64,000 bases of DNA from Glaucostegus cemiculus (Eukaryota). Every line of letters begins with the position of its first letter. The stretch's first letter is position 1. The stretch spans positions 186,001-250,000 of the forward strand of contig CDPCPM010000665.1 of NCBI GenBank assembly GCA_976551045.1, in the 5' to 3' direction. This document shows positions 21,220 through 56,583 of this stretch, in pieces. The translations under genes were made by a program, and so were the position numbers. A model generated the notes under the pieces. It did not search any database, was not told the origin of the DNA, and saw nothing but the letters and a program-made list of their open reading frames with translations.

Positions 21220-22369
21220 AAAACAAAAATAATAACGAGGTAGTGTTCATGGATTCGTGGACCGTTTAGAAATCTGGTGGCGGAAGGGTAGAAGCTGTTC
21301 CTGAATCATTGAGTGTGGGTCTTTAGGCTCCTGTACCTCCTCCCTGATTATAATAATGAGGAGGGCATGTCCTGGATGATGAGGGTCCTTAATGATGGAT
21401 GCCACCTGCCTTCTTGAGACACCGGCTCTTGAAGATGTCCTCAGTGGTGGGGAGGGTTGTGCCCATGATGGAGCTGGCTGTGTCTACAACCCTCTGCAAC
21501 CTCTTGTGATTGTGTGCATTGGAGCCTCCATACCAGGCTGCGATGCAACCAATCAGGATACTCTCCACTGTACATCTGTAGAAATTTGCAAGAGTCTTTG
21601 GTGATAAACCGAATCTTCTCAAACTCCTAACAAAGTAAAGTTGCTGATGTGCCTTCTTTGTGATTGCATCCATGTGTTGGGACCAGGATAGATCCTCTGA
21701 GATGTTGATGCCTAGGAACTTGAAGCTGCTCACCATTTCCACTGCTGACCCCTTAATGAGGACTGGTGTGTGTTCTCCCGACTTCCCCTTCCTGAAGTTC
21801 ACAATCAGTTCCTTGGTCTTGCTGACGTTGAATGCAGGGTTGTTGTTGTAACACCACTCAACCAGCCGATCTATCTCACTCTTGTACGCCTCCTCATTGC
21901 TGTCTGAGATTCTGCCAACAACTGTGGTGTCATCAGTGAATTTATAAATGGTGTTTGATCTGTGCCTAGCCACCCAGTCATGAGGGTAGAGAGAGTAGAG
22001 CAGTGAGCTAAACACACATCCCTGAGGTGTGCCGGTGTTGATAGTCAGCGAGGAGGAGATGTTACTACCGATCTGCACTGACTGTGGTCTCCTGAATGAA
22101 GTTTTGGATTCAGTTGCAGAGGGGCCAGGTTTTCAGGCTTGGTTATTAGTACTGAGGGAATGCTGGTGTTGCATGTTGAGCTGTAACTGATAAACAGTAG
22201 CCTGATGTATGGTTTGCTGTTGTCTCGGTGCTCCAGAGCCAAGTGGAGAGCCAGTGAGATTGTGTCTGCTGTAGACCTGTTGTGGTGGGAGGCAGATTGC
22301 AGTGGGTCCAGGTCCTTGCTCAGGCAGGAGTTAATTCTGGCCATGACCAACCTCTCAAAGCACTTTATT

Positions 22370-22610
22370 GGGGTGGTACGATAGCATAGTGGTTAGCGCG
22401 CTGCTATTACAGCGCCAGTGATCGGGGTTCGATTCCCGTCACTGCCTGTAAGGAGTTTGTATGTTCTCCCGTGTCTGCGTGGGTTTCCTCCACATGCTCC
22501 GGTTTCCTCCCACATTCCAAAGATGTATGGGTAGGTTAATGTGTGTTTAAAATTGGCGACGTGGACTCGTTGGGCTGGAAGGGCCTGTTACCATGCTGTA
22601 AATTTAAAAA
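22370..22610 (+). mobile_element. V-SINE (HE1-type) with CR1/HER1 tail, nested in Rex
   Basis: A box tagtggttagc, B box ggttcgattcc, V-domain, tail ggactcgttgggctggaagggcctgttaccatgctgtaaat. Confidence 0.9.
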
Positions 22611-23235
22611 ATTACCTACGGTAGATGTGAGTACTACCGGGCAATAGTCGCTGAGGCAGCTCACCCTACTCTTCTTGGGCACTGGAACGATTGCTGCCCT
22701 TTTGAAGCAGGTGGGAGCCTCGGAATGCAGCAGTGAGAGATTGAAGATGTCTTTGAACACTCCACCCAGTTGGTTGGCACAGATTTTCAGTACCCTGCCA
22801 GGTGCACCATTGGGGCCTGACGTCTTGAGAGAGTTCACCTTCTTGAAGCATGTTTGGACGTCGGCCTCTGAGACAGAGGACACAGGTTTGCCAGATGCTC
22901 TGGGGATTTGCACAGGTGTAATATTGTTCTCCCTTTCAAAGCATGCATGAAAGGCGTTGTGTTCGCCGGGAAGTGAAGCATCACTGCCATTTATGTTGTT
23001 AGGTTTTGCCTTACAGGAAGTAATGGCATGCAAATCCTGCCACAGCTGTCGTGCATCCGACTCTGTCTCTAGTTTCACTTGGAATTGCCTTTTCATTCTC
23101 ATGATGGCCTTCTGTACATTGTACCTGGACTTCTTGTAGGATTCTGGATCGCTGCTCTTGAATGCCACAGATCTAGCCCTCAGCAGACTGCGAATCTCCT
23201 GGTTCATCAAGGGCTTCTGGTTTGGGAACACTTAG

Positions 23236-30069: not shown

Positions 30070-31539
30070 AAAGAAGCCATGTTCATCTTCACTATATTGT
30101 TTCAATACAGCAGTATGTGTGTTGCTGAAGTGAGCGCTTGGGGAAAACTCATTACTGTTTTCTCATCTTGATAGCTGCTCAGGGTGTGGAGCAGTGCCTC
30201 AAGCTTCTCATGGAACTTGGACATGCAGCTTTTATACATGGGTGATTGATAGCTGCTTCCTCTGATCCAGGGACTACAGAAGCTCACTATCAGTTGGACC
30301 CTGAGCAGAACTTCAAGCTCAATGCCCCATCAGTCAGCAAAACCAAGGTGATGGGAGTCCATAGGAAAAGACATGGGCAACGGGACTTGAAAGAGTTGGG
30401 GATACAATTGGAAGTGAGGTGTGCTTTGGAATAACTCTCATCTCAAAGTAATTAGAACTGCTAATGTTCTCTGCACTGATGTTGAGCTCCCTATCAGTGT
30501 CAAAACTACCACGTCATCATTATCTCTTGTCTTCTCCAGTGTAACGGTTGATTACTTTCTCCTCTCTTCCATCCTGTATCATACCCTTTGGCTCTCCAAG
30601 TCATCATTCAAAATCTGGTTTACCATTTACAGTGGTCTCGCCCTAAACTGCCTATGCAACTTGGCCATCCCTACTTTCAGTCCCATTCCAGGGGGATTCT
30701 CTGGATCCCCCCACTGACTTCTCTGGGAATGCTTCTCCAGTGCTTCCATAAGTGTAGCAGTGGGAAATGGGTAGGAGGATTGCAGAAATTTTGCTCTGTT
30801 CTTGTTAGGCCCCCAGCGATTTTTCCCTGATTGATGATGCCAATACCCAGTTTTGTCTGTGGGCGTTGTAGTCTGTTGAATAATAAGCTGCTGGATAGCT
30901 TCATCATACATTAACATACACGTTTTGAAAGCTTCTAAGCACCTGACACCACTGCACTTTTAAATATTTGTGTATTTGGAACAGAAATAAAATACTGTGT
31001 CTGCTGGGCATTTAAAACATGATTTTAATGAAAAGTGAATGTGAGTGCATAACCTGATAACATGCTGAGTAAATTACGCTGGCTTGGTTCAAGGTGCAGG
31101 GCTCCAGAGCTGGAAGTAACACTGGGGTTGGAGAAGGGGAAAAGAAAGCAAATGTTGCTTTGCATTGTGCTGCTGTTGACGAGAATGTATTCGGGTTTGA
31201 GTCAAAGCCTGTTTGGGGAGCTGAGTTGACTGCTGAATGAAGGATCCCAGGATGGAAGGGGTTAACTGAAAGAATAAAACTGACATTGTTGCAAACAAAT
31301 ACAGATGAAAGTACAGGAAATGTCTAGGTGCAGGGCTACCACAGATGGTGAGAGATAGAAATCGGAGGGACACAGATAAATAGACTCCTTGGCTGTGTAA
31401 GCGCTGCATATTTTTTGCTTCAGAAAACAGCCCGTAGGCAGTAGTATTTGTTATTTTTTTCCTGTGGAATATGTAGCTACTTGTAGCCCTACTGTATGTA
31501 CTGTACAATCAGGTGGGTATGTATGTTTGTGTGGGTGGA

Positions 31540-31849
31540 TGGGTGGGCGGTTTTGGGGTTTTGTGATTGGTTGCCTTGAGCCACAAGCTGCCTTAAAAGC
31601 AGTGAAGCCGGGGTCAGGGGGGACTGTGTGGGCGTGAGATGGAACGCTTGAAAGAGGAACAAACGTCTGACAGCAGCATGCTGCCTCCCTCAGACCGGCA
31701 GATGCTTTTGTGTCTCTGTCAGGGCTGTGCTCTCCAGGCCGCATGGTTGTCTATCGTTATTCTTTTCAGCCGGAGATTTACGGGAGGCTTTTAAGTAGTA
31801 AATACGATGCTAATTGGATGAGGCTGTAGTGACTGTTGTAATGGTGAGT
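31540..31849 (+). promoter_or_regulatory. Candidate intronic promoter and alternative first exon of CABIN1 (or cassette exon) ending in ATG|GTGAGT
   Basis: GGGCGG 31545-31550, inverted CCAAT box (GTGATTGGTT 31563-31572), TTAAAA 31593-31598, several CpGs, then ATG 31841-31843 directly followed by donor GTGAGT 31844-31849. Phase 0 matches the 48887 exon. Lies in a TE-poor stretch. Confidence 0.5.
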
Positions 31850-33949
31850 ACCTCGAAGTTGCCTGTGAATACCATCATCTTTCTCTCTGTCACCTGTGGT
31901 TAGGACAGGGGAATCCCTTCACAAACATGCTGGAAGTCTCCTCATGCACAGTGTCTTGAACTGAAGTCTGTAGTGTATTTTTTCCTGGTATGCATATATA
32001 AACAGCAGGGCAGTGTTTCTGGCAAGTATTTGCATTACAGCTGCTCCAACTTGGTTTCATCTTGTGGTAAACACAGCTTAGTTTCCCTTCTGAATTTTTT
32101 ATGTAAATGGTGTGGAGGATTATCAAAAAGGTGAAGTAGATGTGAGTCAAATATTTGTGGCTTCTTGTAGTGTGTGTGAGTCAAATATATTTAATTATAA
32201 GAAGTGGCTGTCATAAAGTTCCAACCTACAAAAATAGTTGGTATAATCTGTTTAACACTTTCGGGTTTACTGAAGTAATTGAGATATATTGGAGAGGGGG
32301 AGAGAGTGTGTGACTGTTGATTTCTTTGTCATTGATGAAAAGTGATATTTGCCTCCTACTCCAGTCCTTAATTACTTGTCTGTTTTTCTCTCTCATTTTG
32401 TGCAAGGGTTGCGAAGTGTGCCTACTCCAATGAATAATATAATCCTTATTGCTTGTGAACGTATAAATCGTACGGCTCTACAAAGCACTGCTTAGAAAAG
32501 AACAACCTAAGGAGAGACATTCACATTCATTGTATTGTTTTTTTTAAGAAATTCTATCTTTGACTTTGCAGAGGCAGAATAATAATGCTAATTTGATGGC
32601 TTTGCAAGAAGTATTTATTTATTTGTAAAGTTTGGTTATCTATGGATTTAATGGTTGGAATGGAAATGAATAAGAAACGTGTGTTGATTAACCCTTGGAT
32701 CACCAGACACCCTGCTTTTATCATGAGCATCACACCCTGCACATTGCTACTGGAGAATATTCAGAAGTAAAGTTACAGTGAAATACTTTACATACATTGT
32801 TATTTCATCCTTGGAGAGGACGTGGCCCTGAAGTCTGCCTAATTCTATAAAGTATCCCTACTTTTTATACAGTTCAATTACTTATGGCTCCCTTAAAGTT
32901 GAAGCAGCTTAAGGTTTAAAAAGAACTCCTAGGCCATGAATGTTTATGCATGTGAACTTTGTATGTTGACTGTTCCTCTATACATGGTGTGTCAGGTTCA
33001 AAATGTTGAATGATAGTTTGTTTCGCAACCCCATGGTGCTGTAATATCTTGCCGTATGTGGCCCTGCCATATTGAGATCTGCAAAGCTCATGAAAAACAG
33101 ATGAAGTCAAATTTTCCAGAAATAGTGACCAATAATTCAGTAGCTCCCCTCTCCTGAAGACGGGATGTTTGCAAACTATTTTTATTTGTATACATACCCA
33201 CAGGCCAAGAATGAAGGAAATGATATAGGTAGCAGGGCTAGCCAAACAGATCTGGTGATTGGGTCCGATTGCCATGGTTTTGCCTAATAACTTGGGTAGT
33301 TTATGAAAATGAAATTCCAAATGAAGAAATGATCCACTCTGCATATAATGTGAACAACCTTTAGACATCATTTCCATCAAACTGAATGAATGCTAGTGTC
33401 GCCAGTTGCTTTAGTGTTTGCAAATTAAAACAAAATATGGTTGTCTTTAATTTAGCATTAGTGTTGGTCATGATCTTCACCCCTGAGAACACCGACTTCT
33501 GCTGGCCTCAGTTGTTTTTTAATGTTAACCGTACTTTTAAGGGGCCACGAGTCTTAGCAACTGAAGCCTGTGAAAAGCAGGGGTACTTTGCAGAATTAGG
33601 CAGACTTCAGGGTCAGTTCCTCTCCAGGCATGAGAAAATGTTCGATAGCAATGTATATCATTGTAATTTTAATTCTGAGTATTCTCTTGTAGAAATGTAC
33701 AGTGTGTGATGCTTAGTGGTGTACTTCATGGAAACACAAGGGTTGCACAGTGAGCAGCAGACACAGCCTGACCCTGACCCACCCAGCACCCCCCACAATC
33801 CAATGTGAGCATCACCATGATTGTCAGTTAATTACAGCTAATGTTAGTGGGATTGATGCAATCACAAATTAGTGTTAATTCTGTCAGTGCCTTAATCATG
33901 TGCCCTAACAGGAAAAGGTATTACACCATAGCTTCCCAAACACAAATAA

Positions 33950-34140
33950 GATGAGACAAGATTTCTTTATTAGTCACATGTACATCGAAACACACAGTGA
34001 AATACATCATTTGCGTAGAGTGTTCTGGGGGCTGACCGCGTGTCGCCACGCTTCCAGCACCAACATAGCATGCCCACAACTTCCTAACCCATCTGTCTTT
34101 GGAATGTGGGAGCAAACTGGAGCACCTGGAGGAAACCCAG
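33950..34140 (-). mobile_element. 5'-truncated V-SINE (Rex-like tail subfamily)
   Basis: tttattagtcacatgtacatcgaaacacacagtgaaa...ggaaaccc. Confidence 0.88.
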
Positions 34141-34444
34141 GTTGGACAACAGGCTGCACCAACATCCCTGCGCCAGAGGCAGCCATGTGAATATGCCTTG
34201 GGTATCGACAAGCTCCCAAAGTCACCTACTGCTGTCAGACCTCTGGAGGTGTTGCCTTGAAATGCTGCAAGAGTTGAGACTATCTGCTGTGCAGACCTCA
34301 GGCAACCAGAGCAGCCTGTGTTACCTCACCATCCCAGGTCACAAGATCACAAGATAATGGAGCAGAAGCAGGCCAGTCGGCCCATCGAGTCTGCTCCAAA
34401 GGGAGCAGTCATGCAGAGCCAGCTGATTAGCCCACTCCCAGCAA

Positions 34445-34850
34445 CGTGGTCACCTAATTGCCCCCTGTCATTGGTAGCCATTTAATTACCCCAGGCCTGC
34501 CACAGGGTCATTTAATTTCCCCAAGCCTGGCAAAATAGCCATCTAGTTACCCCCAACCCTGCAACAAAACCATAGGCCCAGAAAAGAAACACCTAATTAC
34601 CCCAGACTGTGCATCAAGGCAGCATATCTCAGCCTGACATTGACCCTGACCCACCCACCCTAATTACCCCCAAGAACTGCAACAGAACCATCTAATTGCC
34701 CCAGGCCTGTAACAGAGTCACCTAATTATCCTCAGTCCCTGAATAGAGCCATGCAATTACCCTTGACCCTGCAACAGAGCCCCCTAATTACCCCCATCCA
34801 GGCAACAGGCATCTGATTACTCCAGGATCTGCATTAGGGTCAACTAATTC
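34445..34850. repeat. Degenerate ~30-bp minisatellite (consensus about CATCTAATTACCCCAGGCCTGCAACAGAGC)
   Basis: About 12 recurrences of a taattaccc-like core, mostly about 30 bp apart. Confidence 0.8.
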
Positions 34851-35024
34851 CTGACACCGCTATCTTGAGTAAAATGCACTTGGGGAAACTCCTCTCAGCC
34901 CCAAGCATTTGGTTTAAACAAAGAGCCTTGCAATTAGAAAGTTCTTTTAGAGTAAGTAAAGTTCTAAGGAATTTATTATTAATAGTATTTTCAGTAGGCT
35001 TCATTTGTTAATTGAGTTAATCTA

Positions 35025-35341
35025 ACACAATCTGTTCCTGGATTAAGAACACCCGATTTATAGACACCCCCTACATACGAAGAAGCACCCATGATATTAT
35101 TAAATACAAAAGTCTGATGTGCATTCCTATAAATGGCAGGACTAGTTTCTTCCCTCTCTCCACTTTGAGCGATTGTTCTTGCTTATCACACTTATGCACT
35201 TTTGATGCCATTCATTACAATACTGTGGAGGCACGGTTACCATATTGAGTGATTTTGGTGTATTTTCTGACTTAATGGACAACATTTACTTCTGGATATC
35301 TGTAAAGACAAATCCTAATTGTTACCCGAGGACAGTCTGTA
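35025..35341. mobile_element. Decayed Tc1/mariner (Tigger/pogo-like) MITE
   Basis: Imperfect TIRs acaatctgttcctggattaagaa and ttgttacccgaggacagtctgta. Confidence 0.55.
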
Positions 35342-35374
35342 AACAGAAATGAAGTAGGCTACTTTGGGAAGTCA

Positions 35375-35680
35375 ATGTCAAAATCAAAGTTGAGTTTATT
35401 GTCATGTGCACAAGTACATGTATGCACAGGTTGAATGAAAAACTTACTTGCAGCAGCATCACAGTCACATAGCATCAGATAAGCAGCATTCACAAGAAAA
35501 ACATAAATTTAACTTAAATTGTACACAATTTTTACAAGAAAACGCAATTAGAACAAAAAATGTCTATTTTAGTGCAAAGTGATTGAAATGGTAAAAGTGT
35601 TGCTAAAATCTAGTGGTTAAGGTTGTGCCGGTTGGTTCAAGAATTGAATGGTTGAAGGGAAGTAGCTGTTCTTGAACCTG
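35375..35680 (-). mobile_element. Rex1/Babar 3' UTR fragment
   Basis: gagtttattgtcatgtgcacaagtaca...gaagggaagtagctgttcttgaacctg, similar to the 3' ends at 20570 and 24395. Confidence 0.75.
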
Positions 35681-35689
35681 CTTTCCCTG

Positions 35690-38600
35690 TCCTGGACAAC
35701 CATGGGCGTAAGATGTATTGTCAACTGCATGAACCGTATCTCTGGGTTGCAGAGCCTGAGCAACATTTTTCCTGCTTGTTGACAAGGCTGATTGTGTTGT
35801 GAACAGCATGTTTCAGGAGGCTGTCACCCCCCAGCTCAAGAGAACACAGTCAGAGAGGGACTGAATGACTGACATACAGGCAGAAAGGAGCAGGCAGGGA
35901 GTTCTGGAGCCCCTTGAGACCATCTTGCTCTCTAATCAGTGGTCAGTTTGGAATACTGATGGGAGAGAAGTTTCCATTAGAAAATACCAGAGACTGTAGC
36001 ACTATGGGTCACTCAGTTACACAGTGAGAGAGAGAGAAAAAGATCAAGAGAACAAATGTTAGTGGAGAAATGGGCATGTCTGTGGTCACAGGTTTGGCTC
36101 CAGAATGGTATGTTACGACCCTGGTGCTGGGGTCAAGAATATCACAGCAGAGTGTTCTGGTGAAGGAGGGTGAACACCCAAAAGTCATGGTCCATGTTGG
36201 TGCCAACGACGTGGGGAGAGAAAGGCGTGATGTCCTGTGGGGATATTTTCAGGAGAGGAAAGAGATCAAGCAACAGGACCTCAAAGGTAGGCATCTTTGT
36301 ATGGTTCCTGTGGCACATGTCAGTGAGCACAGAAATAGGGGGATAGTGCTGATAAATGCCTGGCTGGAGAGATGGTGCAAAAGGAAGTGCTTTAGATGCC
36401 TGGAGCATTGGGACCTGTACAAGCTGAGCAGATTGCAGCTCAACAGAGCTGGGACTAACCTCTTTGCAGAAAGGTTTGCCTATGCTCTGTGTGTGTGTGT
36501 GTGCGTGCGTGCGCGTGTGTGGGATGGGGAGGAAGTTGAAACTAATTTAGCTAAGAGGTGGCACAGGAAGGTAGCACTGGAAAAAAAAAGCTACAAGAGG
36601 AATTGGGAGAGGTAAATAGTATCAGAATAAAAAAGACTTCAAAAAAGAGAGAATTCAAGAAGGTCTAGGGTAGATTTATGATGCACTTGGGTAAATGCAA
36701 GAAGCATCTTAAACAAGAATGGTGAGTTGCAGGTGCAGTTAAAAAAAAAGGGTCAGGAATGGGTCTAAATATTCCTGGATACAAGATATTCATGAAGGAT
36801 AGGGAAGGAAAGAAAGGACAGTGAGCGACAGCGTTAACAGTATTAGAATCCTGGAGAGAGTCGTGGGGAATATGTTCGGAGTTAAAAAACAGTATGATTA
36901 CAATACTATGACTGTTCTCTGGGCTGCCAACTAGGTAGAGGGATATAAAGGAGAAAATTTGCAGAGAAATTATTAGCTGTGCTAAAGCCATTGGGTAATA
37001 ATAATGGGAGACTTCAGTCATCAAAATATAGACTTAGATACCAATAATGTAAGAGGGCAAAGAGGGGGAAAGTTATTCAGCTGTTTAGGAGAACCTTCTT
37101 AATCTGTACATTTCTTGCACAGTGAGATAGCTTTTCTGGGATTGGTTCTGGGGAAGGAGTCAAAACTTGTGGAGCAGGTATCAGTGGGATGGCATTTAAG
37201 AAACAATGATTATAATAGCATAAGATTAAGAATACCTAAGGAAAAGGATGTAGATCTGTTTTTACAAGGTAAAAGTAGTTAACTGGAGAAGGACCTGTTT
37301 CAATCCGGTGGGGACAGATCTGGCCAAGGTAAATTGGAATCAAAGCTTGGCAGTCAGAACTCCAATTGAACATGGGAGGATTATAAGACAGAGACGTTTC
37401 AGGTAAAGGGGCAGGGAAGTCAAAGGCAGAGCCCACTGGACAACAAAAAGAGCAGTAAAAAGGGCAGGTGACAGATGCCAGGTTATTAACACAAGTGAAG
37501 ACCAGGTTGATTATAGAAAGTTCAGAGGAGAAGTGAAAAAGAAAATGAGCCAATGCGAGAGCATGAGGAAGGACTGGCAGCAAACACGGTAATTCTAGAG
37601 GCGTGTAAATTAGGTGTAAGAGAAAAAGTGACATTGGTCAGAAATCAAGAAGTTTTCACCAAGGAAGATGATGTGTTGGAGTTTCAGCAGATGAAATTCT
37701 CTAAAAATTGAGAACTAAGAGGTACTACTAAAGCCAGCTGCACTTGCACAAGTGAATAAATCGCCTGGTCCAAATGGGATGCATCCCAGGTTACTGGGGG
37801 AAGTAAGGAAAGCTATTGCAGAGCCCCTGCTATAATCTCCCAAATGTCTGTATCTTCAGGGGTTGGTGCTTGGGTACTGCAGAATTACAAATGCTATACC
37901 CTAGATGGGGGGAAAAAAGGGTGTGGTGATAAACACAGTAACCATTGACTAGTCAGTTTAACTGTGAGAGTGGAGAGACTTCTAGGAGCAGCAATCAGAG
38001 ACAGAACTAGAAGTCACTTGGAAAGTGTAGATGGATTAGAGAAACCAGCATGAATTTGTTAAGGAGAAATTTTATCTAACTAACTTGATGAGGTTATAGG
38101 GGGTCATCAAAGGAAAGGCAGTTGATCAATGGACTTCCAAAAGGTGTATAGGGTCCCACACAGAGGGTTTATCATCAAGACTGAAGGCTGTGGAATAAAA
38201 GGTACTGTGGCGTGTGGAAAATAGGAAACAGCATAGTGGTAGAACACTTTCTGAACAAGATGGAATTGTACAATGCAATTCCATAAGGATTGGTACTAGG
38301 ATCACAACTTTTCTTAATATATATTGGAAATGGGGGTACAAGGTACAATTTCAAAAACTGTAGATCCCACAAAACTGAGAGGGATAATGAGCGAGGAGGA
38401 AGATATCAGTAGAATTCAAGGGGACATAGACAAAGCTGGTGGAATGAGTGGACAATTAGAAAATGAAATGTAATGCTGAGAATTGTGCAGTATTGCATTT
38501 TGTTAAGAAGAATGGTAGGCAATATAAACTGGAGGGCATGATCCTATAAAGGGTACAAGAACTGAGAAATCTGGGATGTGTGTGTATAGTACATTGAAAG

Positions 38601-39195
38601 TGGCAGGGCAGGTTGAGAAAGAGCTGGAAAAACAATGTTGGGTTTTATAAAAAGAGGCACAGAGCAAGGAAGTAAGGATGAACTTCTGTGAAACACTGGT
38701 TATGCTACAATTGGCACATTGTGCCCAGTTCTGGGAGCCGCATTTTAGGAAAGGTGTAAACGGGTGTGCAGAAGAGATTTACCAAAATGGTTCCAAGGTC
38801 GAGGCCCTTTTGTGGATAGAATGGAGAAGCTGGATCATTATTCTCAGAATAGAAGAGGTTGAGAAGGAATAAGATAGAGGTATTTAAAATCATAATGGGT
38901 ATAAACAGAACAGATAGAGAGAAACTGTTCCTATTGGGTGGAGAGGCCGATGACCAGGAGACATAGAATGAGGCGATTGGCAGAAGAATCAAACTTAACA
39001 AGTGTTTACATTCTGGGAGTAGCAGCAGAGATGGATTCCAACGTGGCATTCAAAGGGTAGCTCTAATAAGTGCCTGAAAGGGAAGAATTTATGTGGAATT
39101 TACACGGGAAGAGAGCAGGAGAGTGGGCCTCGCTGGATTGTTGTTTCATGGAGCTGGTGTGGACTTGCAGGCAACCATTTTCTGATTCTGTGATT
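35690..39195 (+). mobile_element. Near full-length decayed CR1 with ORF1 (SGNH esterase-like) and ORF2 remnants
   Basis: ORF 36070-36615 VMVHVGANDVGR...INAWLERWC...WDLYK...LNRAGTNL; atgggagacttc (MGDF, APE); atggacttccaaaagg (MDFQK); HCAQFWEPHFRK; (TTCTGA)n-like tail near 39180. Confidence 0.85.
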
Positions 39196-40043
39196 TAAAT
39201 ACTCCAGGCAAGGTACCAGAACCATCAAAATACATTAAGCACAACATGGAACTTAGAACATGGTGAAAATGACATGGATCATGTATCAGCTGTTCTTATC
39301 CAGTCTTCTTGGCATGTAAGATATAGAATCAGAACAAAATTTGCAGTTTTAGTCTGCATTAGCATTAAATGTTCTGCAAAATTCACCAGTACTGTTAATT
39401 GCTTTAGAATTTTTTTTGTTGTCGTAAGATCTTGTTTGACATATCATTTGACAAAGGATACTCAAATAGATCACTGATATCTCTTTGATGTCCTGATGTG
39501 AAGTAGCATCCTCATTCCCCATGCTGCAAAAGAAAGCCCTGGCCCTACCATCTACCTGTGACAATCACGCCTGGTTCTTGTTTATTCATTGTTAGTTCCA
39601 CAACCTCCCAACGGAGTTTCCTCAATAACCATCCTTGAATATTTATCTGAGGAACATGCTTCAAAGCCTTGACTAGCAGTTCAGAGTTTAAATCTTGTCT
39701 CCCATTGTGTCCATGTAGTTTAAATTAGAGAGCTGTGCTACCCTTCAATCTGTATGAATTGATCTCTAATTTATTTGGAAGCATAGGAGGCAATTCTTAA
39801 ACTGGCAGCCAAACCTGATTGTTATCTGGGTCTCTGCAGACCCCTCTTTGAAGCCTTAATGATGCTAATTCCAAGAAGTCTCATCTTTCTAATTAGGATT
39901 CCTTTTACTTGGTGGGTTTTGTCGCCAAGCAAGCTGGATCATATCATTACAACAGTGATCATTGGTACACGTGGGTCAGGTTTAGACTGGTTTCTCTTTC
40001 TGCGAAAGTGTCTTTCAGTTTCTTATTATCTATTATAAGTCAT

Positions 40044-40290
40044 TACAGGCAATCCCCACATTGCAGGGGGGAGTTGTTGCATTCTTAGGAAACGGTCCAC
40101 ATCACAATTTTCCATAACGCAAAGCTGTGTCATCTACATCGAGAAATGCCAGTTGAAAAACAATTGTGTTTATTTACCCTTTTTTCACTTAAGTTCCCTA
40201 AGAGTGAATTTTATTCCGTATCTCAAATTTTTGGGGAGTGATTCATGATTTCTTTAACCTGAACAGCCCGTAATGCAGGGGTTGCCTGTA
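40044..40290. mobile_element. Tc1/mariner-type MITE with TA target duplication
   Basis: TA-CAGGCAATCCCCACATTGC at 40044 and GTAATGCAGGGGTTGCCTG-TA at 40290 are imperfect TIRs. Confidence 0.75.
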
Positions 40291-42539
40291 TCTGGTCTGT
40301 AGCTACAGCCTGTGGAAAGCAGCACTTTTTACACTTATGGCAATGGGAATTCCTCACCAGGATTGTGAAACCCAATAGCTCCAGTTTGTTAGGAATGTTA
40401 GAGATATTAAAAGATGTCCATGGATGTCCATCATAGACCTTCTTAAAGCTGCTCACATTTTGAGGTATGGTTTTCCTTCTCTGCAATTTCAGCAATGCGT
40501 TTTTCCCCCAGTTCTCTGTGAGCGGAGGGCCCACATAGCAGAATGCAGCTTTAAAACTTCCCCATACCTCTCACCGATCTTTGCCAAGGGGTGACCGCCT
40601 CTGCTGGAATTCTTGGGAGTGCTGTGTCGTGGTCTAGATGCAGTGCCATTTCTGCTGAAGAGGATATAGGAGAACAGCTAGCATTACAGGTTGTATCAGT
40701 ATAGACCTACCCATTTTGTTTGTTGATCAGAGTACCTTTTACCTTCTATGTTTAGTCTGTAAGATCCTTCTTTCTGCTCTTGATTTGTACTGCCACATGT
40801 GGTGTGAATCTAATTCATGCCCTGCTATAGATTTGCTTGTCTGCCCGCCAGTGGGTGAAATGAATAACTGCCACTCTGTAAGGTAAATAATTGCATTTCC
40901 ACTAAAGTACTTTCACGGGTTAATTACTTCCTGGAAGTCATGAGCCACAACTGAGAAGTTGTTTGTGTTCTGTACCTGTGGCACAGCTCTGTTCAGTTTT
41001 GCACTGTCCTGTCTTTGCCGATATTTCCATATGAGTAGAACATTACCAAGAAAGCTGAGTTGGTTGAATAATATATCCTTATTTAGGTTACCAGTCTCTA
41101 AACTCAAGATTTTGGGTTCTCCCCCAAAATATCAGAGGGGATTTCCAATGTGAATTTTCTGTTAATTTCAGGAGGTTTCAGAGCTTTTCGACCAATAAAT
41201 AAGGTTTTCTTTTGAAAAGCAGTTATTCATGATTTTTGGGCAGACACGGCAACAGATGCTCACGGCAGGTGAAATGTGTATATATCCTACAAATGTTTTT
41301 GTCATTTGAAGAAGGATTTTTGGTGAGCAGGAGCACCCTTGCACCTCTTCAGGTAGTACAGTGAATGTTTTATATTGATCTGAACTAGAGACCTCCGTTT
41401 AACATCTCATGTGGAAGACAGTGCACACTCGTCCCTCAGTGAACTGTCAACTTCCTTCACGTCACAGGCTGGTCGTTGACATTCGTGTAGCGCTGCAGAG
41501 CAAATATTATCTTTCACATGAGAGGCAAGGCATCTCTTTCTGAATTAACTACCTGTAATTTTTTTAAAAAGTGGTCTCAAGTGTGCATGCTGATGTTGTA
41601 ATAGTGGCAGATCTGTGATGTTAGTTAAATGGTGAAGATGGAATAAAATTATTGGTATTGTGTACACCAACACCTGGAATAGTGCAGAAATAAAATGAAG
41701 TCCGTTGTACAGTGATTCCAGGTCAGAAACCCATCATATTGAGCTGGAACTGTGCTCCTAATTTGTTTTTCAGCTTTGTTCTAACCACTGTGTTCAGCAA
41801 GGAGCAAACACCTAATTCGCCATTCGATAACTACTCTAATTACCTTCCTTTCATGAAGGCACTTTCAATATTACTGTAAATTAAAATGGGTGACTGCAAG
41901 GAATTCAAACAAGAGAAGATAGCATGGGTTTAATCAGGTTTAAGCTTGAGTTTAACTGTGATGTTCTCCTAAGTAAAAAAAAAAGTTTGGCATGGGTAAT
42001 CTAATTAATATGAAATACATATTTGATACTATTAATATTTTTCAGCTGCTCAAAGGTAACTACATTCTTCATTGTACTGAGCATATTTTTGAGGGAAAGA
42101 GCCTGTGCGAAGCTGCTTGTATTTCTTTCCTTTAATGTTTATTGCAGCTCTTTGTCTGCTGATTTAAAGCTGGATTGGCAGTCATCCGTGGTGAGCATTA
42201 GTCCAAGCCAGCGTTGTCCCCCAGAGTGAAACACCTGGCCTCAGTTCTTGGCCACCATTCAACTCTTAGGCTCATGGAGGGCATGTGTTTGTGGCTTCAT
42301 TCCAGCAAAGCCAGTGATGATGAGATCCTGCTGCATTTATCAACAGCACCTTGATACATTTCATGTCCCACACACAGATGACCAGATGGATGTAGTGGAC
42401 AGCTTAGGGTGGGGGAGCCCACAGTGAAAACCTCAGTCAGAGACATCTGAAAGGTGCCAGGCAATCAGGTGGCAGGGAATGCTGGTGGATGAGAGCTGAA
42501 CTGCTAATTGGGAACCAAGAAACATCACACGTGTTTCGT

Positions 42540-42800
42540 GGAAAAGCGTGAGGGGCCCAGGGCCCGGGAATCCTCTTGCTCCACAGAACTGAGAGAATCC
42601 CTCTACATCAGATCCTTACTGTACAGCCAGAGTCTCAATCCCATCACACGCCTTCAAGGTGGCCACAGTGAACGTGAGGTAATTATGTACCTCCTCATGG
42701 ACTTTGTGTTTGCCAGGAAGGTCTGGAAAAGGATGCAGTGGTCCTTGCTGAGCTTCATCCTGAGCAGCTGCATAATACAGGACCCTGTGATTTGGATCTA
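42540..42800 (+). mobile_element. Decayed L1/Tx1-clade ORF2 C-terminal fragment
   Basis: GGHSEREVIMYLLMDFVFARKVWKRMQWSL resembles the Tx1 C-terminal motif E(T/S)--HLL-EC-FA--VW. Confidence 0.5.
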
Positions 42801-42999
42801 CTGCTCTTTTAGATCCATATTTGAATCTTTTAGAAGATCCAAATATGGGCCTGATCCCCTGATTGGCTGTATAACTGTGACTCACCTTAATATAGTGGTC
42901 CTGACATATGGCACTTCCTGTTTACTGATGTAACGTGTGTGTGGTGGCTGGTCACTATGTGTGGCTCCTCGAACACTTCCCAGGATACTGATGATGTGT

Positions 43000-43800
43000 T
43001 ATGCTGGTTCCTCACAGGTGATTGACCGCAAATCCCTTGGAGATGTTTCTTGGCTGTGCCCTTTTTTTAGGATAGGCAGTGGTGTCGTAACCATCCCATT
43101 CCAATAACGACACAGCCAAGGAATGCCTTCAAGTTACTCACTTTGGACAACAGGTGTCCTTTAGAACTATGTACTCTTGCAGCCTCTTTTGAAATCTGCC
43201 AACCTTCCACTTCTGAGCCCAAAGCTCGGCGTTGTATTCCTTCTCCAACACCACCTCCCCATTATGCAGCCAGACACCTACCTGGACTGGAAATAAAGAT
43301 ACGTGTCAGCAATTATCCCCAAAACCGCCGGTCTGCAGGTCAGCTTGGACGATCCAACCCATTGTTGCATTGTTACATCTGCTTTCCTTTTGTTTATTCC
43401 CTCAATTCCTTGAAGGTTTTAGAAAGTTTTGTCAATCAAATTTGGTTTCCGTTCTTTTACTTTTTTTGTTTTCTGCTTACTTTTCTCTCACATCTTTGAA
43501 TGAAGATCCCATTATCTTTTCGACTGCTAACGTTAGTGTAAGTGGTTAATTGTTCTTCGACCTTGTTTCCCTTTACAAACACAGGAAGAACATTACTTAT
43601 CTGCTGGTTTTGCGTATTCTCTTTTTTAGTTATTGTCACATATATCGCCTTTGCCTTTGCTATCTCTTTGCTTCTTTTAGCATGCATAAAAAAAGTCTAT
43701 CTGGTATTACCCTCCGTGTTTGTGTTTTACATTGTTTTAAGCTCTATTAATGTTCTTTCCTCCCTATTGGTCACCTTGGTAAACACTGAAGCAAAGTAAT
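43000..43800 (-). mobile_element. Highly decayed CR1 ORF2 fragment
   Basis: ccttgtttccctttac, aaacactgaagcaaagtaattattt (reverse of N-YFASVF). Confidence 0.55.
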
Positions 43801-43939
43801 TATTTCACTATTTCTAGCATTTCACAGTCACTGCCAGTGAGTTTACTGTTTATATCACTTTGTCGTCATCATTATGGACAACAATTGCAAATTTTCATTA
43901 AGTCAGAGCAATTTAATTGGAGCAATGGATTTTCATTTA

Positions 43940-44870
43940 ACTGCTGATGCTGGAAATCTGAAGCAAAAACAAAAAAATGCTGGAAATTAGCAGATTAGGC
44001 AGCATCAGTGAGGGAAGAAACAATCAATACATCAGGTCAAGGACTCTATCGGAACTGGATAAGTGTGTTATAAGTTGAATGAGGGGGACGGATGGAGAGT
44101 GAAGAGGGAATTCTGTGGCAGAGTGGAGAACAAAGTTGTCAAGGTGACAATTACATTAAAAACTGGCAATTAGAGACTGAAGAAACAAATTGAAACAGAA
44201 AGGTATTGCCACAGCTGTAGAGGCAGAAGGGGGGATAACCTGGGTTTCATCTAAAATTGTTAAATTCAATATTAAGTTGTGAGGGTTTGGAGCAATGTAG
44301 GAGGGTGAGGACAGAGGTCACAGTGGGAATAGGACAGAGAATTAAACTGGAGACTGGAAGGTCAGGGTTGCCCTCGTGTACTGAATCGATGTGCTGTGCA
44401 AAGCGGTCACCCAATGTACGTTTCATTTCTCCACTGTACAGGAGACCAAATGTGGAACACTAAATTGGAAGAAGTGCGAGTAACCTTTTCCCTTACCTGG
44501 AAGGAGCATTTGGTGGGAAGGGAAGAGATAACAAGGCAGGCATTGCATTTCCCAACGTTGTATGGGAAGCAGATTGATTGGTGGAAATTGAAGAAGGGAC
44601 CAGGGAGTCACAGGGGGGAATGGGCCCTTCAGAATGTTGGAGGGGAGGAGAAGATGTGCCTGGAGCAATCCCATGGGAGGTGTCCGAAATTATGGCAGAT
44701 TGTCCATTGAATATGGAGGCTGGAAGGAAAGTGAGTGAGAACACGTGGGAAATAGAGATGTCATCAAGAGTGCTGTCAACTGTGGTAGAGGAGAAGCCAC
44801 AGCTAAGGAAAGGGGAAAACATCTTAAATGTACTGGTGTGGAAAGTCATAAGTAAAGCAGCTTAAGATGA
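43940..44870 (-). mobile_element. Penelope-like element 3' part (GIY-YIG remnant plus pLTR)
   Basis: Reverse of about 44391-44440 reads YSGEMKRTLGDRFAQH (GIY-YIG YIGETKR-L--RF-EH motif); terminus gatgctggaaatctgaagc...ggcagcatc at 43940-44010. Confidence 0.8.
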
Positions 44871-44879
44871 TTGGATCTC

Positions 44880-45350
44880 AGACACTAACCTAAGGAACTC
44901 CGGACGTGATATCCTGGGACTGGGATTATTTACATCATTTACACCATCTTACCTTGTGCAGGTATAACTCCAACCACTGGAGAGTTTTCTGTTTAATACC
45001 CCATTGACCAGTTTTTGCAAAGTACCTGGACGTGACACTCGGTCAAATGCTATGGGCAGTCACTCTCACTTCGCCTCTGAAATTTGGTTTCTTGGTCCAT
45101 ATGTGAACCAAGGCTGATCGCCTTGCTCGGAAGGATTGCAGTGAAGGATATGTCGGGCTGTGATGTTACAGGTAGTGCTGGTGGGCAATCCTGCTGCTGC
45201 CACTGTTGGTCCACAGTGCCACGTGGATGCCCAACTTTGTGCTGCCAAATCTGTTCAGAATCTGTCTCATTTAGCACATTTGTAGTGCCGCACATTATGA
45301 TGCAGGGTGTCCTCTGTGTGAAGGTAGGGCTGTGTGATGTCATTTCTACC
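44880..45350 (-). mobile_element. Decayed LINE fragment (family of 40-1285)
   Basis: gggcagtcactctcacttcgcctctgaaatt matches 1031-1061. Confidence 0.65.
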
Positions 45351-45494
45351 AATGTTTCCTTATTGGCTGGTTTATTGTTCTTTTAGTGGAAGATTTCCTG
45401 AAGGATTCACCATTTGGTCTTCTGTCTGTAACTGCTCCATCCTCAGACTCCTGCCTTTGACCATCCAGTACATCAGTATCATGGCACTAGCCAT

Positions 45495-45930
45495 CTCATA
45501 GAGTCAGACAGCTTGGAAACAGGCCATTCGACCCACCATATCCATGCCAACCACTGGGCAACCATCCTCAGTAATCCCATCTTCCAGTATTTGGCTCATA
45601 AACTCTAAGCCTAGGCAATTTCAAGTGCTCATCTAGATACCTCTTCAATGGTGTCGGCAACTCGACCTCCACCACTCTCTCAGGCAGTGTATTCCAGGTA
45701 CTCGTCACTCTCTGTGGTGAGAAAGGCCCCTCTCTGATCCCCTCGAAATCTTTCTGAGTCCTCTAGTTTTATCTGCCTGTGATATGGAGAAAGGTTTCCT
45801 GCAGTCTATCTATACCTCAATCTTTTTTACCTTAGGCGTGTCTCCACTTAATCTCCTCCACTCCAGGGAAAACAGACCCAGCCTCTCTCGACTCTTCTCA
45901 CAACTAGAACTGTCCATCCCAGGCACCATC
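45495..45930 (-). mobile_element. CR1 3' fragment
   Basis: Tail gaaacaggccattcgacccacc; ctccagggaaaacagacccagcct. Confidence 0.75.
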
Positions 45931-46042
45931 TCATGTCATTTGAAAACACAAATGTCTTCATAACTAGGTGATTCTTGAATTCCAAGTCGAAGAATCTTTT
46001 CTCCTATAGTTTGTAGAACTAATAAACTGGTGTCTCAAGAAA

Positions 46043-46749
46043 CATACATAGAAAACCTACAGCACAATTCAGGCCCTTCTGCCCACAAAGCTGTGCCGAA
46101 CGTGTCTCTGCCTTAGAAGTTACTAGGCTTACCCATAGCCCTCTATTTTTCTCAGCTCCATGTACCTATTACAAAAGTCTCCTAAAAGACTATCATAACT
46201 GCCTCCACCACAGTTGCTGGCAGCCCATTCCATGCACTCACCACTCTCTGAGTAAAAATCTTGGCCCTGACATCTCCTCCAAACCTACTTCCCAGCACCT
46301 TAAACCCAGGTCCTCTTGTGGCAACCACTTCAGCCTTAGGGGAAAAGCCTCTGACTAGCCACATGATCAATGCTTCTCATCATCTTATACACCTCTATCA
46401 GGTCCCCGTCATCCTCCGTCGCTCCAAGGAGAAAAGGCCAAGTTCACTCGACCTGTTTTCATAAGGCATGCTCCGCAATCCAGGCAGCATCCTTGTAAAT
46501 CTCCTCCGCACCTTCCACATCCTTCCTGTAGTGAGGTGACCAGAACTGAGCACAGTACTCCAAGTGGGGGCTGACCAGGGTCCTATGAAGCTGCAGCATT
46601 GCCTCTCGGCTCCTAAATTAATTTCCATGATTGATGAAGGACAATACACCATATGCCTTCTTAACCACAGAGTCAACCTGTGCAGCTGCTTTGAGCGTCC
46701 TATGGACTCGGACCCCAATATCCCTCTGATCCTCCACACTGCCTAGAGT
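46043..46749 (-). mobile_element. Young CR1 3' fragment (subfamily of 8388-9406)
   Basis: Reverse-complement match to 8690-9400 (RRFTRMLPGLRSMPYENR). Confidence 0.9.
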
Positions 46750-47199
46750 AAAATAAAACATTATTTTATAATCCTTGAATGTTCATGTTCTGAATTATTG
46801 TGAAGATTTCAGGTTAATCCCATCGAGTTAGTTGCCACACACACACCTCTCCAGTCAAAAAGAAGGGGCTGTCTGTTCTCATTTGGGCCCAAGTCTTATG
46901 GGAGAAAGCAATTCTGCACCACCCTTCTGAAATATTTTGTCCATGAAATGATCAACCAAGGAACATAAGGTCTTTTAAATTAAAAATTCAGAACTGTTCA
47001 GATAATAACTTCATTAAAAAAAATCTCAGATAGTTTGATATAGACCTTAATTAATAACATTAATATCGCTCTTAACAAGCTTCAAACAAGTAGACGGCAA
47101 AGTGATGGAAGCTCCTTCGTCACTGCAATATGCTACTTATTTTCAAATTTTGGCCTCTGGAAGATCTCTCGACTAAATTTCAATGGTTAAAAACCACTG

Positions 47200-48220
47200 C
47201 TTACAACTGGCAACTTTCTGAATGTCTCCTCATATTTGTGGTCATTTGCAAACCTCTTTTTATTGATTAAGTAAGGTACCACACAGAAGATTGCTGGAAA
47301 TGATAAAGTGGTAGAGAATTAATGTGATAATAGCAAACCATGTAGTTGAGGGCACTTCTTCATGGTGACTCAAACTGGGCAGTATGCCCCACATGATTTA
47401 CTCTTGAAGCCATTCTGTGTATAACAATCAACCAGTGGCTTTTCAGTTTTAGATTATACTCTTCAGAATTGACTCTTCAGAAGACTACTGTACACTATTA
47501 ACTTATAAACAAAATAGAGGAATGGACAAGTATTTGGCAAGTGCTAGCCAATATTAGTAAGTGTGAAGTGAAGCATTTTTACAACAAAATGGAACCGTTT
47601 ACACTCCAGATACAAGAGGCTTGGTGTGGAGAAAGGACAAGAGAAACTCCGAGGTGGGCTCACAAAGCAGTCATGGCAACATCTCAGACTGCTGTGTTTA
47701 TTTGTTAGAAGAAACTACGATTTAGATTTTACTTAGTGCAGAACGTGGTCAAGAGATAACAGCTTGTATAGGCCACTAATAATATTTCTGAGCACCCCAT
47801 GTCATACAAGTCTCCTCACTATAGGAAGGAATTTGGGCCAAGCAAAAGGATGTAGCAGGGATTTATGAAGTTGCTGCTTGGCTTGATGGATGAAAGCTAT
47901 GAGAAAGTGGAGCCCTCGTTGTTAGAATAATGCAGCTTATAGGGTGTGCAGATGTTGGAGTATATGGATTATGAGGTGATCTATAAAAATGTTTAAAATT
48001 ATGACAGGATTAAGAAGGACATAGGTAGAAACAGACTCTGTCAAGTGGTTGAAGGACCATAGATACAAATGAAATGTACAAGAATTAGAAAAGAAGAAAT
48101 AACAACCCTCTAAGTAGACAGTTGGGAAGCTGTGGATTTCTCCCAGGGATAGAGCTGTAGGCAGGACTGTTGATGTTCAAGATTAGATTGGTTATGTGGA
48201 TGAAAGGAAAGGAGGTAATA
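47200..48220 (+). mobile_element. Highly decayed CR1 ORF2/3' region
   Basis: aaggtaccacacagaagattgctg (KVPHRRLL), tctcctcactataggaagga (SPHYRK), tttaaaattatgacagga. Confidence 0.65.
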
Positions 48221-48221
48221 G

Positions 48222-48520
48222 AGAAGATATTTTTATCAGTCACATGTACATCGAAACACACAGTGAAAGGCATCTTTTGCATAGAGTGTTCTGGGGGGGC
48301 AGCCCACAAGTGTTGCCACACTTCCAGTGCTGCCATAGCATGCCCACAACTTCCTAACCCGTATGTCTTTGGAATATGGGAGGAAACCGGAGCACCCAGA
48401 GGAAACCCACGCAGTCACGGGGAGAATATACAAACTCCTTACAGACAGCGGCCGGAATTGAACCTGGGTCGCTGGTGCTGTAACAGCGTTATGCTAACCA
48501 CTGCACTACCATGTCTACCC
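48222..48520 (-). mobile_element. V-SINE (Rex-like tail subfamily), about 370 bp upstream of the CABIN1 exon
   Basis: Reverse complement of 29768-30069. Confidence 0.92.
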
Positions 48521-48886
48521 AAATAGAATATGGGAAGCAGGTGAACAAATGTTCTTAGCTTTACCTGCTCAGTTGGGAGACAAACACAGACCGTGGCTGA
48601 ATGTCTTGTTCTCTGTAATAAATTATACTGATATATAAGCATAAAATATTGGGTATGATTATGACTCTTCCAATCTGCTGAAATATAACCATCATGGGAT
48701 AGCCCAGAACTTCTCTGAAATGTTACAGATTAAAGTACAAATAGCTATTGTGTGGAATCTTCCTCAACTATTTGTAACGTGGTAAGATTGTGTAATGTTT
48801 TGAAGTTATGCTTATGTGGTTGTCTTTAATTCTCAAATTTAAAACATGGATATTGAAGGAATCAAATTATTATTTTACCTCTGTAG

Positions 48887-49050
48887 GGAATCTGGCGTAT
48901 TCCTGTGGATGAAATTGACCGTCCTGGCAGCTTTGCCTCACATATGAACCGTTCAATTGTTATCTTACTGGACGTTCTGTCACAACTGAAGGACCATAAT
49001 ACACTGTTGAGAGTATCTTCCATGCTTCAAAGGACACCTGATCAAGGAAA
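48887..49050 (+). CDS. CABIN1: Internal coding exon (164 nt) of calcineurin-binding protein cabin-1
   Basis: Acceptor ttttacctctgtAG (48885-48886) and donor GTAAGT (49051). Phase-0 start, 54 codons + 2 nt, no stops: [54 protein letters not shown](K). Closely matches my recollection of the vertebrate CABIN1 segment [28 protein letters not shown]...[13 protein letters not shown]. Neighbouring exons were not recognised in the window. Confidence 0.95.
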
Positions 49051-49569
49051 GTAAGTGTGCATGTTCAGAACTTCAGAATTGTATACATAAATGTAGTTTC
49101 CTTTTCCAGATTAAATAAATATGAATATTCACATGAAATACAATATCCCTTTTTCTGAAAATTGGAGAAATTCAGACATTCCCTTCAGTTATTACCTTCC
49201 ACAGGTGCTACCATGAAAACTGATGAGTGATGAACATTCCCAATACTCATCCATCTCTTGTATCCCATCATTGTACTCGACAGTCACTAGTATTATACTC
49301 TGAAATAGCAAGTATCTCAGGACTCTCCCCCAAAGTGACAGAGGTTTCATTCTATCCATTCTTTTCCCCATTCAGTTTTGTTTCTTTCTTCTTTCACTTC
49401 AGTGCAATATCTATCCCCATTATTTTGTATATTTATCTTTTAATTATTTAAGTTGTGTAAAATGCATTAATATTGTAATATGAATTGGTACAGGGAATCA
49501 TTTTCTAGGATAGGTTTTTACTGCAAATGTGATAAAAGAGCAAGAGAGTAGAAGGTAATTGTACCCACA

Positions 49570-54910: not shown

Positions 54911-56583
54911 CCATAGAACAATACAGCACAATACAGGCCCATCAGCCCACCATGTTGTGCCGTCCATCAAACCTCACACAATCTAGCTCCTTCCTCTCAC
55001 ATATCCCTCTATCCCACATTCCCCATGTGCCTATCCAACAATCTCTTGAACCTGTCCGACGTATCTGCCTCCACCACCACCCCAGGCAGCACATTCCATG
55101 CACCAACCACTCTCTGGGTGAAAAACCTCCCTCTGACATCTTCCCTGAACTTTCCACCCAATACCTCAAAGCCATGCCCTCTTGTCTTGAGCATCTGTGC
55201 TCTGGGAAAGAGGCGCTGGCTGTCAACTGTTATCTATTCCTCTCAATATCTTATACACCTCTATCAAGTCTCCTCTCATCCTCCTCCTCTCCATTGAGTA
55301 AAGCCCTAGCACCTTAAGCCTCTCCTCATATTCCATACCCTCTAATCCAGGCATCATCCTGGTAAATCGCCTCTGTACCCTCTCCAACGCCTCCACATCC
55401 TTCCTATAATGCGGCGACTAGAACTGAATGCAGTACTCTAAATGCGGTCTAACTAGAGTTTTGTAAAGCAGCAACATTACCTTGTGGCTCTTAAACTCAA
55501 TCCCACGATTTATAAAAGTTAACATCCCATAGGCCTTCTTAACTGCCCTATCCACCTGCGAGGCAACTTTGAGTGAACTGTGGATATGAACCCCCAGATC
55601 CCTCTGCTCCTCTACACTGCCAAGTACCTTGCCATTTACCTTGTACTCTGCCCTGGAGTTTGTCCTACCAAAGTGCAGCACCTCACACTTCTCCAGATTA
55701 AACTCCATCTGCCACCTGTCCACCCAGCTCTGCATCCTATCAATATCCCTCTGTAAGCTCCGACAGCCCTCCACACTTTCCACCACACTGCCGATCTTGG
55801 TGTCATCTGCAAACTTACTAACCCATCCTTCCACCCCTTTGTTAAAGTCATCTATAAATATAACAGAGTAGAGGTTCCCAGAACCGATCCCTGTGGGACA
55901 CCACTAGTCACAGCCCTCCAATCCGAGGGCACTCCATCCACTGCAACCCTCTGCTTTCTACAGGCAAGCCAATTCCTGATCCACACAGCCAATCTCCCCT
56001 GGATCCCTTGACCTCTGACCTTCTGAAGAAGCCTACCATGAGGAACCTTACTAAAATCCATGTCAACCACATCCACCGCACTGCCCTCATTAATCTTCCT
56101 CGTCACCTCCTCAAAGAATTCTATCAGGCTCATGAGGCAAGATCTTCCCTTCACAAATCCATGCTGACTGTCCCTAATCAGTCCATGACTCTCCAGGTGT
56201 TCACAGATCCTATCCCTTAGAATCCTTTCTAACAGCTTACCCACCACAGGCGTGAGACTCACCAGTCTGTAATTCCATGGACTATCCCTACTACCTTTCT
56301 TGAACAAGGGGACAACATTTGCTACCTTCCACTCCTCCGGCACCATCCCTGTGGACAACAAGAACTCAAAGATCCTCACCAGTGGATCAACAATCTCCTC
56401 CCTCGCCTCTCGAAGCAGCCTGGGGAATATACCATCAGGCCCTGGAGACTTACCTGTCTTGATATTATTTAACAACTTCAACACATCCTCCCTCTTGATA
56501 TCTACATACTCGAGAACATTACCCTTACCAGCACTCTCTACCGTGTCATCAAGACCCCTCTCCTTGATGAATACTGGAGAGAA
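54911..56583 (-). mobile_element. Young 5'-truncated CR1 with nearly intact RT (frameshifted)
   Basis: ORFs 55852-56484 (KSPGPDGIFPRLLRE...QHGFVKGRSCL...[10 protein letters not shown]) and 55418-55834 (SKFADDTK...LVRPHLEYCIQF). Confidence 0.95.

Follow-up and report, generated by a model that had tools for sequence, protein, structure and literature searches.

The literature on CABIN1 falls into two parts, one on histone H3.3 deposition and the other on repression of calcineurin and MEF2, and a 2026 preprint still termed the function of the protein enigmatic (PMC13228460). According to the available part of that preprint, the N-terminal head and shoulder of CABIN1 hold HIRA trimers in cryo-EM structures, and the full-length protein has nucleosome-contacting loops near residues 390–420 and 961. 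CABIN1 is co-depleted upon loss of HIRA (PMC6078998). The minimal calcineurin-binding stretch is human CABIN1 2146–2155, a PxIxIT motif plus PPTP (PMC9166766). In mice without the last 123 residues of CABIN1, cytokine expression is increased and MEF2D is altered; as the change in nuclear NFAT given in the available text was not significant (PMC2193671), inhibition of calcineurin in vivo may be modest.

Two CABIN1 isoforms have been reported in lymphoma lines, and the short one, B5MEB3, was cloned and used to assay lymphoma mutations of the CABIN1 tail (PMC9075502). Its overexpression lowered NFAT and MEF2 reporters, and it co-precipitated calcineurin, calmodulin and SIN3A (PMC9075502), whereas mSin3 recruitment had been assigned to the N-terminal region of CABIN1 (PMC2193671). 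The accessible text of PMC9075502 does not mention HIRA or state the origin of the isoform, and within the mostly open-access literature searched this is the only paper naming the short form. The same search, to which subscription literature including the first Cabin1/Cain reports was mostly closed, yielded no study of an internal CABIN1 promoter or of a spread of the short form from sharks to mammals.

Here we analysed a 64-kb stretch of ray genomic DNA (the window) and conclude that positions 31574–31843 are a real alternative exon, whose product would be the elasmobranch counterpart of this known but little-studied human isoform. Our preferred reading, which we hold at a probability of roughly 75%, is that this intronic exon ends in an ATG, is joined to the CABIN1 exon beginning GIWRIP and likely stands first in transcripts from an internal promoter; the resulting protein of ∼600 residues is predicted to dock on calcineurin and MEF2 and to be free of HIRA.

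An ATG-ending exon within a CABIN1 intron

CABIN1 contributes a single coding exon to the window, 48887–49050, and the features around it and the alternative exon are collected in Table 1. Six shark and ray CABIN1 proteins match all 55 residues of the coding exon (53/55 in chimaera), which makes an elasmobranch the likely source of the window. The first G of the exon is residue 1655–1656 in five shark and ray proteins of 2249–2257 residues. In all but one of the six proteins the exon start is followed by 595–602 residues, the exception being a gene model with 540. In full-length CABIN1, the canonical upstream exon ends NFFN before GIWRIP. A reading made earlier from the letters alone (hereafter the sequence-only reading) had located a GC box, an inverted CCAAT box, TTAAAA, an ATG followed directly by GTGAGT, an in-frame TAA, the acceptor and NFAT-like hexamers, and each was found where it had been placed.

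Table 1. Features of the alternative exon, its candidate promoter and the shared CABIN1 exon (window positions).
Feature	Position	Strand	Remarks
GT/GC box GGGTGGGCGG, candidate Sp/KLF site	31541..31550	+	GGGCGG core 31545-31550; 1 of only 4 GC boxes in the window
Inverted NF-Y-type CCAAT box GTGATTGGTT, candidate	31563..31572	-	1 of 8 in the window; the only one adjoining a GC box
Alternative exon, likely first	31574..31843	+	X1 contig and P0364; nearly all 5' leader; 5' boundary is as far as seen
TTAAAA	31593..31598	+	Inside the longest transcript-like contig; one of 49 + strand copies in the window
Six upstream ATGs, three short frames	31639..31829	+	51, 38, 30, 28, 4 and 3 codons; each ends ahead of the main ATG
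Acceptor-like CAG after pyrimidine run (16/20)	31767..31769	+	From sequence; would define a 74-nt cassette holding in-frame stops
In-frame TAA, ten codons upstream of the ATG	31811-31813	+	From sequence
Start codon, sole coding triplet of the alternative exon	31841-31843	+	G at -3; G at +4 once spliced; then GTGAGT
17,043-nt phase-0 intron of the short transcript	31844..48886	+	Donor GTGAGT 31844-31849; many LINE/SINE copies
Shared CABIN1 coding exon GIWRIP...PDQGK	48887..49050	+	Acceptor AG 48885-48886, phase 0; donor at 49051

A repeat origin of the alternative exon was rejected, as there is no second copy in the window and no pile-up of reads. Elsewhere in the window, fragments resembling reverse transcriptase frames (LINE-type and related, judged by eye) lie at 21389–23231, 55418–56703, 59121–59801 and 63134–63847; LINE-type fragments and the many SINE copies are ordinary intron content. 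A GC-rich tandem array with a unit of ∼27 nt and several open frames occupies ∼3300–3930, and Rfam gave no match anywhere in the window.

The exon is joined to the GIWRIP exon in elasmobranch records

Reads or contigs of 4 of 18 runs (X1, X2, X14 and X15) were placed on positions 30200–49200, a placement crowded by reads from repeats; none of the runs is known to come from the window's own species, and X1 (organism A) and X2 (organism B) were taken as RNA by guess. The strongest evidence for the junction lies in protein records of a skate cluster. The skate-type P0364 (610 aa, six contigs) opens with MDEAVVTVVM-GIWRIP and continues to the C-terminus of CABIN1. The window frame ahead of the donor reads stop-LDEAVVTVVM and matches P0364 in 9/9 residues after the first; the initial M of P0364 is likely due to the gene caller taking the TTG seen in the window as start. 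P0367 (two contigs) lacks only what precedes the ATG: it has 601 aa and begins M-GIWRIP. From the G onward, both are identical to the named little-skate CABIN1 at 600/600 residues. As a long intron follows the shared exon in the window, the contiguous frames of P0364 and P0367 point to a spliced origin.

At the nucleotide level, a 300-nt contig of X1 aligns over 269 nt to 31574–31842, unbroken and with five differences, leaving 31 letters over, and the next X1 contig has its first letter at 48887. The junction can be placed in three equivalent ways; the leftmost (31842/48886) predicts 31 leftover letters and a 30-letter overlap; such an overlap fits a 31-mer assembly graph, if this word length is assumed. 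Judged from this geometry, rather than from a row among the joints listed, the X1 contigs appear to carry the 31843→48887 junction. Together, P0364, P0367 and the X1 contigs show, in relatives, that the start comes from a non-canonical upstream exon spliced to the GIWRIP exon, bearing out the splice proposed in the sequence-only reading.

Depths of 11.7 and 16.4 in X1, a rough measure, hint at a large contribution of the short form in this run. Raw reads of X14 amount to about one sense-strand fragment on the alternative exon versus an approximately eightfold depth, with sense-strand reads, on the shared exon, and those of X15 cover neither exon; from these differences, use of the short form seems to vary by sample. 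In X2, a low-depth contig lies on 31454–31683 and the shared exon has no cover, which speaks against the preferred reading. Protein isoform X1 of Hemitrygon akajei (P0325) has 19 extra residues, the last an M, between the sequence of the canonical upstream exon and GIWRIP; this insert had no counterpart in the window among the 30 matches listed.

Transcription start and candidate promoter

Chance expectations for the motifs were estimated from 200 Markov simulations. The window has a single GC box with an NF-Y-type CCAAT box within 50 nt, and such a pair appeared in 6% of simulations. The trio of GC box, CCAAT box and TTAAAA in this order also occurs once versus 0/200 simulations, for a pattern that was defined after being seen. 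The 49 plus-strand copies of TTAAAA are background level, and ATG-GTRAG on the plus strand of 1–48886 is ordinary (3 seen versus 1.99 expected).

The X1 contig begins 2 nt past the CCAAT box and 19 nt before TTAAAA, and no AG precedes 31574. Contigs cannot show transcription starts, and no pile-up of starts was found over 30200–49200 in the runs with raw reads placed. The proposal that TTAAAA serves as a TATA box for a start at 31620–31630 finds no support, as the relative's contig already begins at 31574 and thus carries some sequence upstream of such a start, although the main start may still lie there. Given the reach of this contig and the lack of an AG in front of it, a dispersed TATA-less start fits better than a focused one, and the promoter is probably of the TATA-less GC/CCAAT type. 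Transcription would then begin around or upstream of the CCAAT box, probably at dispersed positions.

The real start might lie further upstream, in a longer or additional non-coding first exon, with the GC and CCAAT boxes inside the transcript or not acting as a promoter. This would account for an X2 contig (31454–31683) that crosses both boxes and for the beginning of the X1 contig immediately after the CCAAT box. It would also suit the sense-strand depth of 0.43 (about one read pair) of X14 over 30200–30833, where the other three runs have none and where the signal may be intronic RNA or an upstream exon. However, X2 was classed as RNA by guess, and its contig, at a depth of 3.7, could be DNA or divergent transcription. 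The bin 30834–31467 is empty in X1, X14 and X15, and both the lack of an AG before 31574 and the uniqueness of the GC/CCAAT pair in the window also weigh against a more distant start, which we regard as somewhat unlikely.

Short CABIN1 forms across jawed vertebrates

We fetched 540 proteins, of which 433 carry the exon start; these are search matches with many near-duplicates and not a census. The canonical upstream exon precedes the exon start in 289 of them and a Q, mostly intron read-in, in 57. A further 27 start M-G, 10 have other residues and then M-G, 25 start MPR..-G, 7 start at the G itself and 18 are of other kinds. Plain M-G was found in named teleosts (Lates, Gasterosteus, five killifish records, Eleginops, Ilyodon and Oncorhynchus), in a snake and in records nearest skate, teleosts, lungfish and placental mammals. 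In a bird gene model the first exon ends V-M, and V-M-G is common to skate-type, teleost and bird records. A purine-first codon, as favoured at a used start, stands immediately ahead of M in 8/10 of the extended M-G records, the two exceptions being proteins of >1800 aa. Start exons may be artefacts of gene modelling, so full-length frames found on contigs of 2–6 kb carry the most weight.

Short C-terminal forms of CABIN1, of the kind predicted by the sequence-only reading, occur across jawed vertebrates. The comparison with annotated short transcripts that it had proposed confirmed that such forms exist, but also showed them to be less new than implied, with human B5MEB3/Q9NPU0 already annotated and used experimentally. 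No short form was found among 59 listed named shark, ray and chimaera CABIN1 records (a list that leaves out 23 members of one cluster and 10 of another), none of which is below 1739 aa, so the alternative exon seems to have been missed in chondrichthyan annotation. Likewise, no short M-start form was seen among 122 mostly distant matches, a set unfit to test absence.

In principle, a phase-0 acceptor before a self-contained tail could accept any upstream ATG exon, so that fishes, birds and mammals would have recruited different first exons on separate occasions. The N-termini of short forms do differ (M, MPRRSRR and the single cases P0070, P0079 and P0048). Nonetheless, plain M-G recurs in skate-type, teleost, lungfish-like, snake, bird and eutherian records, and this recurrence, with the shared V-M-G, makes separate origins unlikely. 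An origin in the jawed-vertebrate ancestor would make CABIN1 two genes in one ever since: the main promoter would yield a HIRA scaffold, and a single ancestral intronic promoter, with a first exon coding the start codon alone, would yield a stand-alone brake on calcineurin and MEF2 of ∼600 residues. We put forward this broader proposal tentatively, at a little short of even odds.

Placental mammals have two short starts, M-G (P0096, P0122, P0534, P0537 and P0053, some with SG before M) versus MPRRSRR-G (P0146 and P0154), suggestive of two first exons or two donors. Salmonids have a second cabin1 copy, marked by GIWHIP (P0083, P0168, P0172, P0173, P0177, P0182 and P0185), in which the C-terminal module is kept with 85–87% identity to the full-length copy and 98.5% between coho and rainbow trout. 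In its longest model, only two remnants of ∼37 residues and tandem-repeat filler lie upstream. Judged from these protein models, the second copy may survive as a short-form-only gene. A more distant relative, P0404 (71% in the exon), ends with a stretch resembling the MEF2 helix, from which the MEF2-helix module may predate jawed vertebrates.

NFAT-like and AP-1-type sites around the exon

RCAN1-4 is a calcineurin inhibitor made from an internal promoter that carries a dense cluster of NFAT sites. WGGAAA-type (NFAT-like) hexamers at 31315 and 31458 (minus) had suggested similar feedback in CABIN1, with calcineurin itself switching on an NFAT-driven promoter. Such a loop would suit a product that is a calcineurin-docking inhibitor, and AP-1-type sites (TGASTCA, here TGAGTCA) at 31198, 32143 and 32177, three of the eight in the window, flank the exon. 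However, the hexamers number 3 in the 1300 nt of 31000–32300 versus 3.62 expected, WGGAAA is at background level in the window (178 on both strands), and no NFAT:AP-1 composite site was found around the exon with the pattern used. Two of the three AP-1-type sites are moreover copies of one 23-nt repeat, spaced by 34 nt. We therefore consider NFAT feedback quite unlikely. A weak MEF2-like A/T site lies at 32191.

Upstream ATGs and an acceptor-like site in the leader

Six upstream ATGs, absent from the sequence-only reading, span 31639–31818. The first, at 31639, has a strong context, the final upstream frames end 11 nt before the main ATG, and no upstream ATG is removed by any of the four differences listed (five in total) in the organism A contig. 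A ribosome would reach the ATG at 31841 past these six by leaky scanning or reinitiation, and output of the short form is therefore likely low or regulated.

Taken further, the same leader could mean that the short transcript is made but barely translated in elasmobranchs, with the upstream frames absorbing ribosomes and the RNA being regulatory or leaky. The 51-codon frame of the strong-context ATG, the closeness of the last stop to the main ATG and the lack of a named short form among the 59 listed chondrichthyan records would all be expected in this case. Against it, an M immediately ahead of G, with a purine at −3, is found again in distant lineages, a low-molecular-weight isoform has been reported in human cell lines (PMC9075502), and dispersed starts downstream of 31639 would bypass the strong ATG. 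Poor translation to this degree thus appears very unlikely.

The sequence-only reading also lacked the acceptor-like site at 31769. Together with its pyrimidine run (16/20) and the in-frame stops of the 74-nt piece, this site could define an internal poison cassette that sends the full-length CABIN1 transcript into decay by frameshift and stops, with the ATG incidental, but the X1 contig runs from 31574 through 31769 without a break (although contigs drop rare forms) and an ATG at the donor, which a poison exon does not need, recurs across lineages, making this highly improbable.

The predicted short protein

As the downstream exons fall outside the window, the motifs of the short protein were read from relatives. 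PEITVTPPTP, the MEF2 helix and RKRK are kept in 53/54 short forms of 540–640 aa; in P0367, PEITVTPPTP lies at 526 and the MEF2-binding helix at 536. The expectation that the isoform retains its calcineurin and MEF2 sites is thus confirmed for the motifs, and the proposed inhibitory role agrees with the reduced NFAT and MEF2 reporter activity seen with the human counterpart (PMC9075502). Pfam found MEF2_binding alone in P0367, with the N-terminal TPR solenoid absent, and the counterpart of MEF2_binding in human CABIN1 is the peptide of PDB 1n6j.

Most of P0367 is disordered in its structure model (mean pLDDT 45), which has helices in an N-terminal piece (17–86), three more at 256–325 and the MEF2 helix. 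Searching with this model, Foldseek returned nothing at E 0.001, VIA-align gave a best Z of 7.8 to generic helices, and ESM Atlas gave no usable match for residues 245–335; none of the three showed a new fold in P0367. Residues 253–325, the basic RKRK followed by the three predicted helices, are strongly conserved in all aligned short forms and have no Pfam or Atlas match, and could be a partner-binding domain.

From the domain layout seen by cryo-EM, the short protein is predicted not to enter the HIRA complex, as the head and shoulder, where HIRA trimers are held, would be missing from it. A possible mode of action is that of a largely disordered adaptor, in competition with NFAT for the PxIxIT groove of calcineurin and with co-activators for MEF2. 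The likely point of such a protein would be that tissues set the dose of the inhibitor apart from HIRA, on which the stability of full-length CABIN1 depends. We infer this HIRA-free and separately dosed adaptor from the position of the calcineurin and MEF2 motifs in the tail, of HIRA binding in the N-terminal head and shoulder, and from the co-depletion of CABIN1 with HIRA.

A short form present from skate to human offers a simple split of labour between the two CABIN1 literatures. If the broader proposal of one ancestral intronic promoter is true, much of the calcium-signalling work ascribed to CABIN1 would belong to the short protein, and the salmonid duplicate may be retained for the short form alone. 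Knockdowns through the 3'UTR and C-terminal deletions affect both forms (PMC9075502 and, by inference, PMC2193671, both as far as their text is available).

Comparison with known systems

The likeness to RCAN1-4 is one of arrangement, an internal promoter (here a candidate) leading to an inhibitor that docks on calcineurin (here predicted). The two proteins are unrelated, and the NFAT sites of the CABIN1 intron are at background, in contrast to the dense cluster of the RCAN1-4 promoter.

Closer by sequence is full-length CABIN1/Cain itself, the subunit of the HIRA complex corresponding to yeast Hir3, whose last 600 residues are common to the short form. Compared with it, the short form lacks ∼1650 residues, including the head and shoulder and the nucleosome-contacting loops. 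In the structure model its first ∼90 residues form three to four predicted helices, and the top Foldseek match, weak at E 0.57, was to the arm/tail of Hir3.

The short cabin1 models of Lates (GAA6220827.1), Nothobranchius (A0A1A8P304), Oncorhynchus (XP_031685986.1) and Junco (A0A8C5J1V9) have M directly before GIW and 579–610 aa. The bony fish, snake, bird and mammal models are database entries only, and the salmonid ones belong to the second gene copy.

The closest described system is human B5MEB3 (UniProt, 590 aa; also Q9NPU0/DKFZp762G2015, 589 aa), which enters at the same GIWRIP exon, is likewise without the N-terminal solenoid and keeps PEITVTPPTP and the MEF2 helix as the elasmobranch form does. 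It differs in starting MPRRSRR-GIWRIP, whereas the elasmobranch form has M alone, and in lacking an internal stretch near the C-terminus that is present in most other short forms. Overall, the human short isoform was known already; new are its exon in sharks and rays, the ATG-only design of this exon and the spread of the short form across jawed vertebrates.
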